Positions 6,324 through 58,108 of a stretch of DNA of 64,000 nt are shown here, piece after piece. Made by a program: the position numbers and the translations under genes. How positions within the stretch are numbered: position 1 is the stretch's first letter; each line of letters starts with the position of its first letter. The stretch spans positions 14,673 through 78,672 of the forward strand of contig JAZSIQ010000107.1 of NCBI GenBank assembly GCA_045533875.1, in the 5' to 3' direction. The DNA comes from Acutalibacteraceae bacterium (GTDB lineage: Bacteria; Bacillota; Clostridia; Oscillospirales; Acutalibacteraceae). The notes beneath the pieces were generated by a model. That model did not search any database. It saw only the letters and a list, made by a program, of their open reading frames with translations, and was not told where the DNA came from.

Positions 6324-8225
6324 ATGGATAAAGAAAAGAGTAAAATTGTTCCGCATACGGATGATGATAAATTGCAGGCAGCTAAGGCTGATAATGCCGG
6401 CGATTTTGATTTGTTCGATATTGACGAAATATATGAAGAATCTGCGCAGGAGAGTGAAGTGCAGGAGGCTTCCGCCCGTGAGGAGTCTGCCGGGGAGGAA
6501 AACGCAAGCGCCAATTCTTTTTATGCGCTCATTGAGGAGTTCGGAAATGCCCTTCTTAAATGTATAGGTGCATTTTTTATGTTCTTCATCCGCCTTTTGT
6601 CAAAGCCTTTAAAAAGGCTCGGCATAAGATTGTCTGTATTCGGCAAAAGGGCTGATATGAAAATCAGAAAGTATCTTTCGGTATTCGTTTTGGAGCTTTC
6701 AGTTTTCGGCAACGAGATTAAATCCGCAGGGCAGACTCTTAAACGTGCCGTGCGCCATCCCGTTAAATTCTCAAAGCTGTTTTTCAGTTACATTAAAAAG
6801 GGTCTGAGCAATCACGATAAATTGCTCAAAACAGTTGCGAATTTCGGCTTGCCCGTAGTTGCGGCAGCAGTGCTTGTGCTGGCGGTAAGCTATTGGAACG
6901 GAGTCACCTTTGCACTCGAGGTAACTTACAATAATCAGAGCATCGGCTACATCAGCGATGAATCGGTTTATATAGAAGCGCAGGAAATGATTGAGGAAAA
7001 GCTTGATACAGGCGCTCTCACTCTTTCACAGGATTATGGTCAGGGTGTGGCTTCAACCGATTTCCTTAACGCTGAGTATCAGCTTAAAATCGTTTCTCTT
7101 GAGGAACTCAACGATGCGCAGACTATATGCGACAGAGTTATCGAGAATTCGGCTGATAATCTTATTAACGCCTGCGGTGTTTACATTGACGGTGAATTTG
7201 CAGGTGCTATCAAGAACGAAGCGGATGCAAAAACCGTTTTCTACAATATCCTTGAGCCCTACGAGGCGCAGGCACAGCAGGAGGGCTATGTTGTAGGCTT
7301 TGCGGAGAATATTGACTATGTACAGGGTCTTTATTCGGACAGTTCAAAGACTATCCTTGATGCCGCACAGTTTGAGGAATTACTTAATTCCGAAAAGAAA
7401 ACCGTGAGGGAATATACGGTTGAAAGCGGCGATTCGTTTGAAAGCATAGCGGATGATTTTTCAATGGATACCAAGCAGCTTGAAGCTCTCAACGAAGGCT
7501 TTGCTTGGGAAAATCTGCGCAGAGGTGACACGGTACAGGTTGAGGAAACCTCAAAGTACGTAAGAATTCAGAAAACAGTAACCAGCACCGATTATAAGGA
7601 GGTTGACTACGATTCCGTAATCACCAGGGATGCCACCAAGTATTCGGGATATCAGAAGATTACAAAAGCAGGCGTTGAAGGTCTTAACAGAGTAACCACC
7701 ACCAGGATTTATATTGACGGTGTGCTTGACCGTGTTGATGAAGAAACCGTTGTTATAAGAGAGCCCGTTGCTGAAGAAAAAACCGTAGGCACAAAGAGCT
7801 ATTACGGCGGTGTTACGGTATCTCCCTCTGCTTCAGGATTCCTGTGGCCTGCACCCAGCTGTAATTATGTAAGCTCGCCTTACGGTTACCGCAGCAGCGG
7901 CTATCATAAGGGAATTGACCTTTGCAAGAGCGGTGGCGGAGCAAGCGGTACTTCGGTTATCGCTTCCAAGGCAGGCACGGTAGAGTTTGCAGGCTGGAGC
8001 GAAATCGGCTACGGCTATCTTGTGACTATCAACCACGGCGGCGGATACAAAACCAGATATGCCCACATGCTAAAGATGCCCAGCGTTTCCACGGGAGAGA
8101 AAGTTTATGCAGGTCAGGTCATAGGTCAGGTCGGTTCAACCGGCAACTCAACAGGCCCTCACCTTCACTTTGAAATTCTTTATTACGGTGAACATCTCAA
8201 CCCCGGCAACTATATAAGCAGATAA
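6324..8225 (+). CDS. Membrane-anchored LysM/G5/M23 peptidoglycan endopeptidase
   Basis: TM helix ~aa 175-190, LysM (YTVESGDSFESIA), G5-like (GVEGLNRVT), M23 HKGID and STGPHLHFE. Confidence 0.9.
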   Translation: MDKEKSKIVPHTDDDKLQAAKADNAGDFDLFDIDEIYEESAQESEVQEASAREESAGEENASANSFYALIEEFGNALLKCIGAFFMFFIRLLSKPLKRLGIRLSVFGKRADMKIRKYLSVFVLELSVFGNEIKSAGQTLKRAVRHPVKFSKLFFSYIKKGLSNHDKLLKTVANFGLPVVAAAVLVLAVSYWNGVTFALEVTYNNQSIGYISDESVYIEAQEMIEEKLDTGALTLSQDYGQGVASTDFLNAEYQLKIVSLEELNDAQTICDRVIENSADNLINACGVYIDGEFAGAIKNEADAKTVFYNILEPYEAQAQQEGYVVGFAENIDYVQGLYSDSSKTILDAAQFEELLNSEKKTVREYTVESGDSFESIADDFSMDTKQLEALNEGFAWENLRRGDTVQVEETSKYVRIQKTVTSTDYKEVDYDSVITRDATKYSGYQKITKAGVEGLNRVTTTRIYIDGVLDRVDEETVVIREPVAEEKTVGTKSYYGGVTVSPSASGFLWPAPSCNYVSSPYGYRSSGYHKGIDLCKSGGGASGTSVIASKAGTVEFAGWSEIGYGYLVTINHGGGYKTRYAHMLKMPSVSTGEKVYAGQVIGQVGSTGNSTGPHLHFEILYYGEHLNPGNYISR

Positions 8226-53283: not shown

Positions 53284-53360
53284 CCGCCCGTGGCGCAGTT
53301 GGATAACGCAGCAGATTCCGATTCTGAAGAACGGGGGTTCGAATCCCTTCGGGCGGGCCA
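53284..53360 (+). tRNA. tRNA-Arg(CCG)
   Basis: Acceptor CCGCCCG/CGGGCGG, anticodon loop TT-CCG-AT, GGTTCGAATCC, encoded CCA. Confidence 0.97.
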
Positions 53361-53390
53361 GACAAAAGCAGCCTTCAAGCTGCTTTTGTC
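53361..53390 (+). terminator. Perfect 12-bp hairpin after tRNA
   Basis: gacaaaagcagc/gctgcttttgtc. Confidence 0.75.
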
Positions 53391-53393
53391 AAC

Positions 53394-53562
53394 TAAATCC
53401 ACCCTGTCGGGTGGGTGAAATATTGCTCTGCAATGTGAAATTCTCGATTTGCTCGAGTGAAATCGCTGCGGCGGTGAGTGGATTTAATTTCACTTAATGC
53501 GTCAGCATTAAATTTCACAATCCATCAGGATTATTTCATGTTTTCGTAAGAAAACATTTCAC
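53394..53562. repeat. Structured GTGAAAT/ATTTCAC hairpin-ladder element
   Basis: 3 (+1 degenerate) GTGAAAT and 4 ATTTCA(C/T) heptamers, separated by individual hairpins. Confidence 0.85.
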
Positions 53563-53607
53563 TTAAAGCAAATCCTCAATAAATCCGTTATTAACAATCG
53601 TACCAAG

Positions 53608-53755: not shown

Positions 53756-54898
53756 TTAGGATTTTTCACTTTGCCAGACGATGTTGCCGTTTATTATAGT
53801 AGCTTTGACCGAGGAGTTTATTTCGAGCGGATTACCCTCATATATAACAATATCCGCATCTTTACCCTCTTTAAGACTTCCCAGTCTGCCATCAACTCTG
53901 CATATACGGGCGGCATCAATAGTGATTGCACGAAGCGCCGCTGTTTCACCCAAACCTTCTTTTGCTGCAAGTGCTGCGCACAGCGGCAAATACTGGATGC
54001 GTGAAACAGGGTGGTCGGTGGTTATTGCTACCGTCACACCTGAATCGTGTAAAATTCCTGCTGTTTTGAAGTCGCACAAACCGACTTCTTTTTTGTTCCT
54101 TGAAGCAAGTGACGGACCTACAATTGCGGGAAAACCGCTTTCTGCAATCTCCTGAGCTATAAGATGTCCCTCCGTGCAGTGGTCTATTGTCAAATCAAGG
54201 TTGAATTCTTTTGCGATTCTTATGGCTGTGAAAATATCGTCTGCTCTGTGTGCGTGTGCTTTAAGAGGTATTTTTTTTTCAAACAATTCTCTGTAACACT
54301 CAAAATAAAAATCCTTTGCATCCGATGAGTCTTGTGATAAATATTGCTGTGCTTTAAAAAGCTCTTCCCTTATAAGAGAGGCTGTACCCATTCGTGTTGC
54401 GGGAGTGTTGCCGTTAATTCCGTAGCAGTTTATCGGATTTTCACCCAAGGCTATTTTGATGGCCGATGGGGCAAGCACTATCATATCATCTATACGCCGT
54501 CCGTACGTTTTTATGAAAGCAAATTGTCCGCCGATGGCATTTGAACTGCCCGGTCCTGCCATAACGCCGGTAATGCCGGCTGCAAGCGCATTGTGGAATG
54601 CGCTGTCCATGGGATTTATACAGTCGATGCCTCTTACGGTAGGCGTTGTGGGGAAAGTGTTTTCATTGCTGGTATCATTTTGGGTTGTTGTTTTTTCTTC
54701 GGCAATACCGAGGTGGCTGTGAGCATCTATAAACCCGGGATAAACATTAAGATTCTGTGCATCAAAAATTTCTGTATCCTCATCAGGAATAATGTTTTTA
54801 CTGATTTTTTTGATTTTACCTTTTTTTATAAGCAGGTCGGCATGTGTCGGTGTGTTGTCTTCCATTGTGTGCAATAGTCCGTTTTTAATCAGAAGCAT
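53756..54898 (-). CDS. Amidohydrolase (imidazolonepropionase-like/YtcJ-related family)
   Basis: MLLIKNG, PGFIDAHSHLG, HAHRADDI, DHCTEGH, TTDHP, GKDADIV; start after AAAGGA RBS. Confidence 0.9.
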   Translation of the reverse strand: MLLIKNGLLHTMEDNTPTHADLLIKKGKIKKISKNIIPDEDTEIFDAQNLNVYPGFIDAHSHLGIAEEKTTTQNDTSNENTFPTTPTVRGIDCINPMDSAFHNALAAGITGVMAGPGSSNAIGGQFAFIKTYGRRIDDMIVLAPSAIKIALGENPINCYGINGNTPATRMGTASLIREELFKAQQYLSQDSSDAKDFYFECYRELFEKKIPLKAHAHRADDIFTAIRIAKEFNLDLTIDHCTEGHLIAQEIAESGFPAIVGPSLASRNKKEVGLCDFKTAGILHDSGVTVAITTDHPVSRIQYLPLCAALAAKEGLGETAALRAITIDAARICRVDGRLGSLKEGKDADIVIYEGNPLEINSSVKATIINGNIVWQSEKS

Positions 54899-54985
54899 GT
54901 TTGTTTCCTTTCTGTTTTTGCTGTTGTGAATAGTTTGCCGCATTTGAGATAAACTATCCTTGAAAATGATTAAGGAGGTGAAATC

Positions 54986-55150
54986 ATGAATAACCAGAAT
55001 AACAATCAGAACCAGAGAAACAACCAGAACAACAAACAGAACAACAATCAGAACAACCAGAATCAGAGAAATAATCAGAACAATCAGAACCAGAAAAACA
55101 ATCAGAACAACCAGAACCAGAAAAACAACCAGAACAACCAGAGAGACTGA
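54986..55150 (+). CDS. 54-aa Asn/Gln-rich micro-protein
   Basis: AAGGAGGTG RBS 5 nt before ATG; MNNQNNNQNQRNNQNNKQNNNQNNQNQRNNQNNQNQKNNQNNQNQKNNQNNQRD; synonymous AAT/AAC variation keeps the frame. Confidence 0.75.
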   Translation: MNNQNNNQNQRNNQNNKQNNNQNNQNQRNNQNNQNQKNNQNNQNQKNNQNNQRD

Positions 55151-55277
55151 TTTTCGGATGCTTTCGGAACACGGATTAACAGTTTGTTTTTTATAAAGCA
55201 AGCCTGATGAAAGCGGTGCATGAAATTTAAATCTGATTTTGTGTGCTTGATCAATATGCACAGATATCCGAAAAAGA

Positions 55278-55315
55278 AAAGGACTGCCTCGCTTATCTTA
55301 GTGAGACAGTCCTTT
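55278..55315. terminator. Terminator-like hairpin
   Basis: aaaggactg..ctcgct/agtgag..cagtccttt. Confidence 0.6.
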
Positions 55316-55538
55316 AATCTAATTGTTTATTTGATATATATGTTTTCCATGCAGATGTTGGGTGTTCTGACGGTAACCGTTAATTCTTTCATATATCCCG
55401 TCAATTCAAGGCGGCGTTTTCCTTTGCAACAAACAGCTCATAACATCTTGCCGTACATATATCCGTAAAAACCGCAGATGAACTGATTTTATGCTGTTTT
55501 TTATCTGGATGTGATTTTATAATAGAGTAAATGATTTG

Positions 55539-57176
55539 TTATGAAAAATCAACATCGCAGAATTTGCCCGTCAGGAATGATAAGCCCGGCGCTGAAAGCT
55601 TTTTGCCATTTGCCGTTATATTTTCCGCTTTGACTTGTACGGTGTTGGTATCGCTGCCCGTACCGTCTATTTTGGAGGGCATATATGAAGTGTAGGAGAT
55701 ATTTCTGAACTCCACATTTTTGATTTCAAAATTCTCTTTTTCTTCATCGTAGATTTTCACGAGAATCGCTCTGCCTTCATCGCGGAAAATCTCAATATTC
55801 TCAAACAGCACCCCGTCAATGCTTCCTTCGCATTGCTCCGCCACAACTACAAGCGAACCGATACGGTCATTATCCCATATTCCGTCACGGTAGATAACGG
55901 CACAGTCCCGGAAGGTTATGTTTGAAATCTTTTTGCAAACCTCGCCTGTGACACCGAAGCATCTGGCATAACCGCCCCAGGCTATGCAGTTGGTGAAGGT
56001 TACGTTGTTGGTGCCCATGGTGCCGCCGAGTGCCTTTACTTCAAATTCATCGTCTGCCGTTCTTGCAAAGCAGTTGTTGATTACTGCGTTTTCCGTGTTG
56101 CATATAGCAAAGCCGTCTGCGTTGCCTCTGTAACCGAGGATGTCAACCTGCTCAACGGATACGTTGCGGCAGCAGTAGGAGATGAAAGACCACTCGGGGG
56201 AATTGATGATTTTTACATCACTGACGGAAACATTGTTGCAATAGGTAAATACAACACCTCGGCGCTCACGGCGGTCAAGCCGAGTCATATCAATTGCGCC
56301 GCGGCCCGTTATTACAATGTTGTTGCAGTTGTAGAAGTTGATAAACGGATATCGTGTAAGCCCGATTGCGTTGTCTGTTGCGGCATTTTCTTCCATATAA
56401 AGGTTTTCATCCTCTGCGCTCTGAATATCGTAGTGATGCTTTGCAACAAGGTATGCACCCTGCCTGAGGTAGAGTACCTGATTGTCCTTCTCAACAAAAT
56501 TGATGTAATCGAGCTCATGAACTCCCGGCTCGAATACGGTTACATTTTCCTCGCCGTACTGCTCAATATACATGGCAATTTCGGCATCCTCGTCTGTTTT
56601 TTCACGAACGAAAAGGGTGTAGCCGTAAAGCTGTTGAGCGCCGTTAAACAGGAAAGTATAAATACCGGGTTTGCTGATTGAAGCGGTTACAACGCCGTTT
56701 TTGCATTGCGCACCTACTCCGAGGGATTCGGGCAAAACAATAGCATTTTTAAGCTTTACATCCTTTGAGGTCAGCACGATGTTAAAAGAAAAGTCTGCAT
56801 CAGACTCCACATAGACCTCCGAGAAGGAGTGCAGAGTGCCTGTATCTTCGCAGCGAAGGAACACCATGGAGGCATAAACGGGGATATCGGCGCTGCCGAT
56901 TTTTGCGGTGTAATAAGGGGAAACGATAACTCCGCCTATATCGTCATATCCGCCGGACTGAACGTATTCTGCGTGCTCTGCGCTTGCACGGTGGGTGAAT
57001 TCCTCTTCGGTAAGACCTGCCTGCTCAAGGGTCAATACCGCCTCTTTCGGGTATTGCAGATACGTTAAGTCAAGCCCCTGGGTTTCGGGGATGAGAGGTG
57101 CGGGGGATAAAAGGGATGAAAAGAAAACCGAAATAACGGTAAATACCGTATATATAAATTTTATGAACTCCTGCAT
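55539..57176 (-). CDS. GH28-like right-handed beta-helix glycanase
   Basis: IINSPEW, GNADG, TADD, repeated N(I/V)TFxNC beta-helix turns; hydrophobic N-terminus. Confidence 0.75.
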   Translation of the reverse strand: MQEFIKFIYTVFTVISVFFSSLLSPAPLIPETQGLDLTYLQYPKEAVLTLEQAGLTEEEFTHRASAEHAEYVQSGGYDDIGGVIVSPYYTAKIGSADIPVYASMVFLRCEDTGTLHSFSEVYVESDADFSFNIVLTSKDVKLKNAIVLPESLGVGAQCKNGVVTASISKPGIYTFLFNGAQQLYGYTLFVREKTDEDAEIAMYIEQYGEENVTVFEPGVHELDYINFVEKDNQVLYLRQGAYLVAKHHYDIQSAEDENLYMEENAATDNAIGLTRYPFINFYNCNNIVITGRGAIDMTRLDRRERRGVVFTYCNNVSVSDVKIINSPEWSFISYCCRNVSVEQVDILGYRGNADGFAICNTENAVINNCFARTADDEFEVKALGGTMGTNNVTFTNCIAWGGYARCFGVTGEVCKKISNITFRDCAVIYRDGIWDNDRIGSLVVVAEQCEGSIDGVLFENIEIFRDEGRAILVKIYDEEKENFEIKNVEFRNISYTSYMPSKIDGTGSDTNTVQVKAENITANGKKLSAPGLSFLTGKFCDVDFS

Positions 57177-57260: not shown

Positions 57261-57677
57261 TTATCCGAGGCGTCCGTTTAATTTTTTTGTTGTGCTTCTC
57301 ACGCACAGGTAAACGGTGATCCATATAACGAAGTAAACGGCTATGAAGATGAGACTGAAAATCAGCAGCACCTTAGGTTCAAAAGGAATCCATGAATTCA
57401 CCGTGTAGCAAAGGCTGTAAGCCGCATAGAGCATGCCGAAATGGCACAGCAGGGATTTCGGGAGCGGCCAGTGCTCAATCTGATTAAAAATGCTTGCACC
57501 TGCATGAACGAATGCAAGCAGATAGGTGGAAAGCGTGGCGATGAGCACTTCCCGTGCGCTCAGGCTGAAGCTATCAACCGTATACGAGACGGCAAGAAAA
57601 ACAATGCTTGCCACAATGGGGCCGAAGCCGCCGAATAAAAGACCGCGGTGCAAAAAAGACTTAAGATATTTGTTCAT
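57261..57677 (-). CDS. DUF3021 family membrane protein
   Basis: RGLLFGGFGPIV, SIFNQIEHWPLPKSLLCHF, YFVIWI; coupled to LytTR gene. Confidence 0.85.
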   Translation of the reverse strand: MNKYLKSFLHRGLLFGGFGPIVASIVFLAVSYTVDSFSLSAREVLIATLSTYLLAFVHAGASIFNQIEHWPLPKSLLCHFGMLYAAYSLCYTVNSWIPFEPKVLLIFSLIFIAVYFVIWITVYLCVRSTTKKLNGRLG

Positions 57678-58108
57678 TATAAACCCAACCTTTCTTTAAC
57701 GGATTTAATTTGCCTGCGTGATACGTAATCCTCATATCCGTTTTTGAAAATTACACGCAGCGTGCCCGTGACGGAGGAGTCGAATCGGGCGATTTTTTTA
57801 ACGTTTGCAATGCAGGATTGATTTATCTTCACAAAATTGCCGCTGAGCTTTTCCTCAACCTGATAAAGGCGCATTTTTATAAGCAGCTTGCCCGAATCGG
57901 TGAGCGCATAAAGCCTGCCGTCCTCTAAGGTGAAGCAATGAATATCGGCAGGATTGAGCCTGAATTGAGAATCTTCCTCATATCCCGTAAAGCCGAGGAC
58001 ACTGTCCTCAATAAGGCGTTCAATTTCCTCTATAAGCGGAGTTTTTTCGTGAGCATAAATCAGAATTTTTTCCTCCTGCTGTTTGTCTATCAGAATTCTG
58101 AGTTTCAT
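57677..58108 (-). CDS. LytTR DNA-binding-domain-only regulator
   Basis: RLYQVEEKL, FVKINQSCIAN, VSRRQIKSVKERLGL; no receiver domain. Confidence 0.9.
   Translation of the reverse strand: MKLRILIDKQQEEKILIYAHEKTPLIEEIERLIEDSVLGFTGYEEDSQFRLNPADIHCFTLEDGRLYALTDSGKLLIKMRLYQVEEKLSGNFVKINQSCIANVKKIARFDSSVTGTLRVIFKNGYEDYVSRRQIKSVKERLGL

Follow-up and report, generated by a model that had tools for sequence, protein, structure and literature searches.

How should an open reading frame (ORF) be understood when almost everything it encodes is asparagine or glutamine? Such a frame is found at positions 54986 to 55150 of the window analysed here, that is, the whole stretch of 64,000 nucleotides (nt) from an Acutalibacteraceae genome (G000:C121:14673-78672; 2.18 Mb in 208 contigs, around 90% complete). 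The locus raises three questions, namely whether the frame is a gene at all, when it would be expressed, and what its product would do. The comparative evidence indicates that it is a real gene, selected as a peptide, and that the promoter motif preceding it is conserved and enriched throughout a family of relatives in Clostridia, from which we infer expression in the forespore. Regarding its role, we place about half of our confidence in a small spore-core protein made in the forespore, serving as a reserve, as a filler or as both, and playing a part similar to that of the gamma-type small, acid-soluble spore proteins (SASPs). The elements on which the argument turns are the following.

54928 to 54956, plus strand: predicted forespore (sigmaF/G)-type promoter, with a -35 box GAATA (54928-54932), a 17-nt spacer and a -10 box TAAACTA (54950-54956), a motif conserved in orthologues

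54972 to 54980, plus strand: Shine-Dalgarno (SD) sequence AAGGAGGTG, 5 nt before the ATG at 54986, with an SD 4-mer in 36 of the 38 relatives scored

54986 to 55150 (stop codon included), plus strand: coding sequence of the 54-residue Asn/Gln microprotein, recognized by its ORF, its composition, 58 relatives in the same frame and their residue spectrum

The frame is preceded by a TAA four codons upstream of the ATG, runs for 54 sense codons and ends with a TGA at 55150. Its product, MNNQNNNQNQRNNQNNKQNNNQNNQNQRNNQNNQNQKNNQNNQNQKNNQNNQRD, contains 30 Asn, 16 Gln, 3 Arg, 3 Lys, 1 Asp and 1 Met. All these elements, from the ribosome-binding site to the stop codon, are present as the original prediction had them, and the nine-residue repeat unit that it proposed is recovered by Tandem Repeats Finder as a period of 27 nt (5.4 copies, 84% matches). 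The Asn plus Gln content reaches 85%, against a 99.99th percentile of 37% for the 25,053 ORFs of at least 25 residues in the genome, and no second N/Q ORF or tract was found in any frame elsewhere in it. Asn is encoded by AAC 21 times and by AAT nine times, and Gln by CAG in all 16 cases. Since the genome as a whole uses CAG for 85% of its Gln and AAC for 55% of its Asn, this choice is uninformative either way, and we rejected the idea that codon bias points to strong expression.

An open frame alone represents weak evidence for a gene in this case, because a tract of AAY and CAR codons cannot hold stops. This property, together with the 27-nt tandem repeat, is what favours a non-coding explanation, where the tract would be a slippage-prone minisatellite, a stretch of curved DNA upstream of the neighbouring amidohydrolase gene, or a small RNA, with the ORF being incidental. 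The comparison of relatives is what decides between both possibilities. These were gathered by a DNA search of 40 related genomes and by scanning 185,579 species genomes twice for IUPAC patterns, to which we added ten genomes from an even sample of the class, chosen solely for a long stretch of consecutive [AC]A-N codons. The resulting family comprises 58 small ORFs of 33 to 69 residues (median 45), with a family-wide Asn plus Gln content of 79%, from both isolates and metagenome-assembled genomes (MAGs). Their carriers are labelled as Acutalibacteraceae, Oscillospiraceae, Ruminococcaceae, Faecousia, Pelethomonas, Lachnospiraceae (Acetatifactor), Scatosoma, Cacconaster, Eubacteriales or simply 'Clostridia'.

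The same architecture recurs across this family. In the loci that could be scored, the N/Q frame opens with ATG in 36 of 38, and an SD precedes it in 36 of the 38 with upstream DNA; the ORFs stop directly past the tract and, in most loci, a hairpin followed by a T-run lies within approximately 70 nt of the stop. Against the non-coding explanation, the start, the strong SD and the stop just past the tract recur in the N/Q frame at 58 loci with unrelated flanks, and changes in repeat length among relatives are always in-frame, by multiples of three. Two species of the window's genus, for instance, differ by exactly one NNQ unit (43 versus 40 residues), and the lengths of orthologues (43, 40, 51 and 54 residues) reveal a quick drift of both sequence and length between close relatives.

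The residues themselves point in the same direction. We compared the 554 residues other than Asn and Gln in the 58 proteins with the expectation derived from the single-nucleotide neighbours of AAY and CAR codons. Those that mutation should supply most readily are nearly missing, with 1 His observed where 90 were expected, 3 Thr for 48, 2 Ile for 48, 1 Leu for 21 and 2 Pro for 21, whereas Lys (194 for 117), Arg (96 for 21) and Ser (105 for 48) are in excess. In addition, all 58 proteins have a net charge between +1 and +6, and the last residue is R, K, F or Y in 49 of them. The spectrum, the charge and the C-terminal preference thus reflect selection on the peptide and not on the DNA, which makes the non-coding explanation highly improbable. 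The tract matched no Rfam family either way. The relatives and their residue spectrum therefore bear out the initial description of a genuine small coding gene, distinct from a pure DNA repeat, and neither of the two features that would have spoken against it, frame-disrupting length variation and loss of the ribosome-binding site, was seen among the relatives.

The family appears to have escaped annotation. Neither the exact window protein nor nine of its relatives is present in a collection of 15 billion proteins, and searches with the window protein and six relatives gave no Pfam or NCBIfam match at E values as high as 1. Gene callers therefore miss these genes systematically. Literature searching turned up no description of an Asn/Gln microprotein family of this kind. 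Conventional homology tools perform poorly on such sequences: a word-indexed search with the window protein gave 1067 candidates and none at E<=0.01, as the composition bias defeats HMMER and the database searched lacks the protein, and a profile hidden Markov model (HMM) built from 28 members found no match in 400 genomes of the class, missing the window's own gene as well, so that its result is uninformative. The pattern matches that we examined cover all prokaryotes, and among them such small ORFs occur almost solely in Clostridia. Matches from other phyla lay within larger proteins or lacked a convincing ORF, with the one clear exception of a gammaproteobacterial MAG with what may be a short ORF, left out of the family count, and the only Bacillales case was an 83-residue SspE-like ORF of Sporosarcina, discussed below.

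Within the class, long one-strand tracts of the N/Q type were detected in about 40 to 45 of 400 evenly sampled genomes, with zero in the reversed control. A check of ten of these candidates, each from a different GTDB family, showed every one to be a gene of the microprotein type. The pattern (MAN)x11, applied to the 400 genomes, is over-permissive, as it also captures tracts rich in Lys, His or poly-A, so that only its per-genome counts are useful; none of the 30 loci that it returned contained an N/Q ORF.

When would the gene be expressed? The motif upstream of it provides the main clue. It ends 29 nt before the ATG, with a predicted transcript start near 54963, and the original prediction had noted that it loosely resembles promoters of the forespore sigma factors. 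Its boxes are as described there, and what was a loose resemblance at one locus becomes a recurrent feature in the family. The orthologous promoters read GTATA or GAATA, N17 and CAAACTA. For the counting, the pattern GnATA-N17/18-nAn[AG]nTA was set beforehand from the textbook sigmaF/G consensus and searched up to 100 nt upstream of the start. It was found in 47 of 60 family loci, mostly 20 to 60 nt upstream of the start, compared to nine of 153 control regions (upstream of other ORFs from the loci of the first set; overall density 0.024 per 100 nt), an enrichment of approximately 13-fold. By set, the motif occurs in 19 of the 29 loci gathered first, where shuffled upstream regions gave a mean of 0.6, in all ten loci of the independent set from ten GTDB families, and in 18 of 21 loci of the third set. 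As the upstream flanks are unrelated between lineages, the motif is not one inherited sequence. A cultured carrier, 'Oscillospiraceae bacterium LCP25S3_E10' (JBQKJJ010000010.1), encodes a family member of 65 residues preceded by GAATA-N17-AATAATA.

The company that the motif keeps is consistent with this assignment. A stricter search of the source genome, combining motif, SD and ORF, gave just 17 matches, and these include the N/Q gene, a SpoVAC/SpoVAEB gene, a DUF378 protein and an M23 peptidase whose N-terminal membrane anchor would correspond to a SpoIIQ-like design. In Clostridioides difficile, both the spoVAC operon and the SASP genes are under forespore control (PMC7438776; PMC3789822). 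The consensus sequences of sigmaF and sigmaG in this species resemble those of Bacillus subtilis and also each other, to the point that assignment is often ambiguous (PMC3789822); the two being so alike, we call the promoter sigmaF/G-type without choosing between them. The source genome belongs to a spore former, with genes for an alpha/beta-type SASP, for a sigmaG-like factor (411 bits) and for the GPR protease. In six loci from Faecousia MAGs (L025, L069, L096, L102, L121 and L221), the N/Q gene follows spoVAD-spoVAE(C) in the same orientation, at a distance of 55 to 61 nt, and carries its own GGATA-N17 promoter.

The alpha/beta-type SASP of the source genome is itself peculiar. The only one detected (G000:C182:192-335, L130) is normal over its N-terminal two-thirds, but past GGQMVKN the sequence becomes unrelated to SASPs, within an open frame of 85 residues, which may represent an assembly join or a truncated copy.

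A second element of the locus extends the argument to the neighbouring gene, which is transcribed away from the microprotein gene.

53756 to 54898, minus strand: amidohydrolase gene of 380 residues, with Pfam domains Amidohydro_1 and Amidohydro_3, starting at ATG 54898 and confirmed by orthologues

54931 to 54959, minus strand: predicted mirror-image forespore-type promoter, with a -35 box GGATA (54959 to 54955), a 17-nt spacer and a -10 box CAAACTA (54937 to 54931), recognized in the genome-wide motif scan

The minus-strand motif stands 32 nt before the amidohydrolase ATG. Together, the two predicted promoters form an imperfect palindrome, GAATAGTTTG-N12-TAAACTATCC, spanning 54928-54959, where each -35 box lies just beyond the -10 box of the other promoter and overlaps it by two bases. 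This two-way promoter shared with the amidohydrolase is new here. At another 13 loci, orthologues of the enzyme with 68 to 80% identity and an N/Q ORF are arranged head-to-head. We examined 13 of the intergenic regions, that of the window among them, and each carries the motif in both orientations. Amidohydrolase homologues at 43 to 59% identity have neither an N/Q partner nor the motif, and most members of the microprotein family have other neighbours and no amidohydrolase, which makes the pairing specific to one clade and not general to the enzyme family. Lineages that lack the amidohydrolase show a one-way motif and no palindrome. The divergent pairing on which the original prediction had remarked is therefore conserved, and more strongly than was stated there, although limited to this clade. 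As for the enzyme, it reaches no NCBIfam cut-off, and its closest solved relative is 3OOQ, a structural-genomics entry of unknown function.

The antisense strand of the microprotein gene creates an annotation trap. On the minus strand, the antisense of the N/Q repeat reads as poly Leu/Val/Ile and is joined in frame to the amidohydrolase, giving an open frame of 501 residues (53756-55261; 513 residues in the genome search). This could suggest that the opposite strand is the coding one, with a Leu/Val/Ile-rich membrane anchor fused to the enzyme or a peptide similar to type I toxins, an idea that finds its support in the antisense frame being open and in frame with the enzyme in the window. However, the extension is broken by in-frame stops in all five orthologous loci examined, 4 to 24 codons upstream of a conserved MLLI(K/A/S)NG start, while the Pfam domains and 3OOQ align from residues 1-3 of the 380-residue form, and most family loci have no amidohydrolase at all. 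The hydrophobic reading is an automatic consequence of Asn and Gln codons on the other strand. No conserved open hydrophobic frame was found in the orthologue comparison, which refutes both the anchor and the toxin, and we give this alternative practically no credit; the antisense fusion is, as far as the orthologues tell, a coincidence of the source genome. ORF callers are nonetheless likely to report a false amidohydrolase of 501 residues with a spurious hydrophobic N-terminus of 120 residues, an error that is worth correcting.

The window's genus also contains a second type of N/Q locus. One of its species (G015) has two separate N/Q tracts, at G015:C219 and G015:C229:5799-5916, one of them linked to the amidohydrolase and the other elsewhere. 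Other species of the genus (L005, L007 and L008) carry the N/Q gene solely at the second locus type, characterized by a flavodoxin-like neighbour and by proteins ending in RENF or SENY.

What, then, would such a protein do in a spore? The closest functional analogue is the gamma-type SASP SspE (PF04259, TIGR01442), found in Bacillales, which is likewise small, repetitive, hydrophilic, rich in Gln and Asn, monocistronic and preceded by a forespore-type promoter. The microprotein is half its size and far more extreme in composition, and basic whereas SspE is roughly neutral. SspE is absent from all clostridia examined in a previous study (PMC3533761). The Sporosarcina ORF mentioned above brings both kinds of protein together. 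Found in a MAG of this spore-forming genus (L234, DAMDKL010000006.1, ~6729-6758, minus strand), it starts with an (NNQ)n/(RNQ)n tract resembling that of the microprotein, to which a module similar to gamma-type SASPs, EEFGSETDVQHVKQQNQ, is joined. With 27.3 bits (E 4e-6), the ORF falls just short of the TIGR01442 SASP_gamma cut-off of 30.65; it contains a GPR-type site (EFGSET) and is preceded by GGATA-N17-TATGCTA, a promoter of the same type as those of the family. The other SASPs are more distant. Those of the alpha/beta type (PF00269) and the minor SASPs of the sigmaG regulon are also small and predicted to be made in the forespore, but the microprotein is low-complexity throughout, has no sequence similarity to the alpha/beta type (no match to PF00269) and no predicted helical DNA-binding fold.

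According to the reading we favour, the microprotein gene would be a real, translated and monocistronic member of an uncalled family of tiny, basic and hydrophilic Asn/Gln proteins present in many lineages of Clostridia. Its transcription would be driven by a forespore-type (sigmaF/sigmaG) promoter, so that the protein would be made inside the developing spore and accumulate in its core, filling the part that gamma-type SASPs play in Bacillales. There, it may act as a disordered reserve rich in amide nitrogen, providing Asn and Gln for outgrowth after its breakdown at germination, and/or as a hydrogen-bonding filler of the dehydrated core. The forespore-type promoter, the strong SD, the wholly polar and surely disordered product, the fast drift at constant composition and the restriction, within the genomes sampled, to Clostridia that mostly carry sporulation genes would together point to a bulk protein of the spore core, whose function would lie in its composition, and less firmly to a reserve or matrix role. 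In the Acutalibacteraceae and their neighbours, the amidohydrolase and the microprotein would be wired back-to-back through the overlapping palindromic promoters, which would switch both genes on together.

Several observations weigh against this reading. The microprotein has no HMM match to the gamma-SASP profiles (PF04259/TIGR01442), and none of the 58 family proteins contains the GPR cleavage motif E[FIL][AGS][STQN]E[FTL], modelled on the site consensus of SASP processing, of the type E-[F/I]-[A/G]-S-E-[F/T]. The window protein would therefore not be a member of the SspE family, and what holds of the earlier comparison with gamma-type SASPs is the analogy, which the lack of SspE in Clostridia and the (NNQ)n tract of Sporosarcina make reasonable; the protein may nonetheless work like a gamma-type SASP. 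The motif from which the promoter is assigned is short and degenerate, and 13 of the 60 family loci have no match to it, including a subgroup with AAATA in place of GnATA, and no clean match was found upstream of either the single alpha/beta SASP gene or gpr in the source genome. Genes for SASPs are present in 33 of 40 candidate carriers and in 257 of 359 other genomes, a co-occurrence that is not significantly enriched and does not discriminate, because most of the class carries them. The four SASP-negative candidates tested all have SpoVAC, and two of them also SpoIVA, but three other candidates lacked the sporulation marker for which each was tested once (SpoIVA in G261 and G287, SpoVAC in G113). 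Finally, the palindrome of the amidohydrolase clade could be the operator of a dimeric regulator and not two promoters, even though the one-way motif of the lineages without the enzyme favours two promoters over a single operator.

The loci without the motif, the lack of a significant SASP enrichment and the few carriers without a marker would also fit a real gene unrelated to spores, encoding a hydrophilic protein of vegetative or stressed cells, with the motif arising from AT-rich promoters or belonging to another sigma factor. Contrary to this, the motif exceeds the controls and stands at the right distance from the start in lineages whose upstream sequences are otherwise unlike, spoVAC and the SpoIIQ-like gene of the source genome are preceded by it as well, the N/Q gene abuts the spoVA operon in Faecousia, and among the pattern matches examined small ORFs of this type are nearly confined to Clostridia, plus Sporosarcina. 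We therefore consider a role outside the spore quite unlikely.

The main rival accepts forespore expression and differs in the function, which would be structural: a polar-zipper or prion-like gel or amyloid immobilising the core, or a coat for nucleic acids bound through Lys and Arg. The extreme Asn/Gln content, the absence of hydrophobic residues, the regular spacing of Lys and Arg and the positive net charge of every member speak for it, as does the precedent of GerG, a spore protein of C. difficile whose Asn-rich repeats drive gel formation in vitro (PMC5241399). GerG is similarly an Asn-rich repeat protein of a clostridial spore with a variable number of repeats. However, it is much larger, with around 30% of unusual composition and functional regions outside the repeats, it is restricted to C. 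difficile, where it acts on Csp incorporation, and it has no sequence relation to the microprotein. Prion-like N/Q domains, such as that of yeast Sup35 or the candidate bacterial prion domains, share the extreme Asn/Gln content, but here the tract is the whole protein of 54 residues, interrupted by Lys or Arg every 6 to 11 residues and without any attached functional domain to switch. These regular positive charges and the lack of aromatic or hydrophobic residues in the body of the protein should oppose tight amyloid packing, and the fast drift among orthologues fits bulk composition better than a specific assembly. A structural role is thus unlikely in our view, even as the strongest of the alternatives to a bulk reserve or filler.

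A different kind of explanation would place the function in translation itself and not in the peptide, with the message reporting on, or consuming, Asn-tRNA and Gln-tRNA. Many Firmicutes charge both tRNAs indirectly through GatCAB, the tract is restricted to exactly the two amide amino acids, and its strong SD suggests heavy ribosome loading. However, selection has favoured basic residues and disfavoured His, Thr, Ile, Leu and Pro, and this, like the preference for R, K, F or Y at the C-terminus, points to a peptide whose properties matter. In addition, there is no downstream gene in cis on which such a sensor or sink could act, since the next gene in the window is convergent and most relatives end at their own terminators. 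These facts make it very unlikely, and they also led us to reject a leader peptide or attenuator. The 3' end of the transcript is the following.

55151 to 55316, plus strand: 3' untranslated region, closed by a strong hairpin (55277-55316; fold z-score -3.7) between convergent genes

The hairpin is probably a two-way terminator, with a better T-run on the minus strand. Beyond it, three minus-strand matches to sigma-70-like promoters (55486-55547), just past the 3' end of a GH28-like gene, face the hairpin and the N/Q gene, and antisense transcription into the latter is possible.

The most complete version of the proposal would also assign a role to the divergent enzyme. In it, the microprotein would be the long-missing clostridial counterpart of gamma-type SASPs, an abundant store of amide nitrogen in the spore core. 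In the Acutalibacteraceae and their neighbours, this store would have gained a dedicated processing enzyme in the amidohydrolase, which would be fired together with it from the palindromic promoter and would set Asn, Gln or ammonia free at germination without any need for GPR. We regard this full scheme as rather doubtful, and the enzyme-substrate relation on which it depends, already put forward as speculative in the original prediction, remains speculation.

Two further features of the window are worth recording. Immediately after a tRNA-Arg(CCG) gene (53284-53360), the Rfam Gut-1 RNA (RF01706) occurs twice, as an inverted pair at 53390-53468 on the plus strand (70.7 bits) and at 53482-53564 on the minus strand (51.5 bits). 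To our knowledge, this RNA has no known function, and such a pair beside a tRNA could mark an integration site or the end of a mobile element. On the minus strand, at 57261-58108, the gene of a LytTR DNA-binding protein (143 residues) overlaps by one base that of a DUF3021 membrane protein (138 residues), a common and uncharacterised two-gene module.

The spore biology of gut Clostridia rests mostly on the models of Bacillus and C. difficile. Gamma-type SASPs are one of the major small proteins of the Bacillus spore core, and we know of no proposal for what would fill their place in Clostridia. With carriers in about one tenth of the sampled genomes of this class, the family described here would, if real, represent a blind spot in every catalogue of spore genes. 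The microprotein would offer a simple natural test case for the behaviour of a nearly pure Asn/Gln polypeptide in a dehydrated cell, and the palindrome would show how two forespore promoters can overlap exactly to give co-regulated divergent genes.

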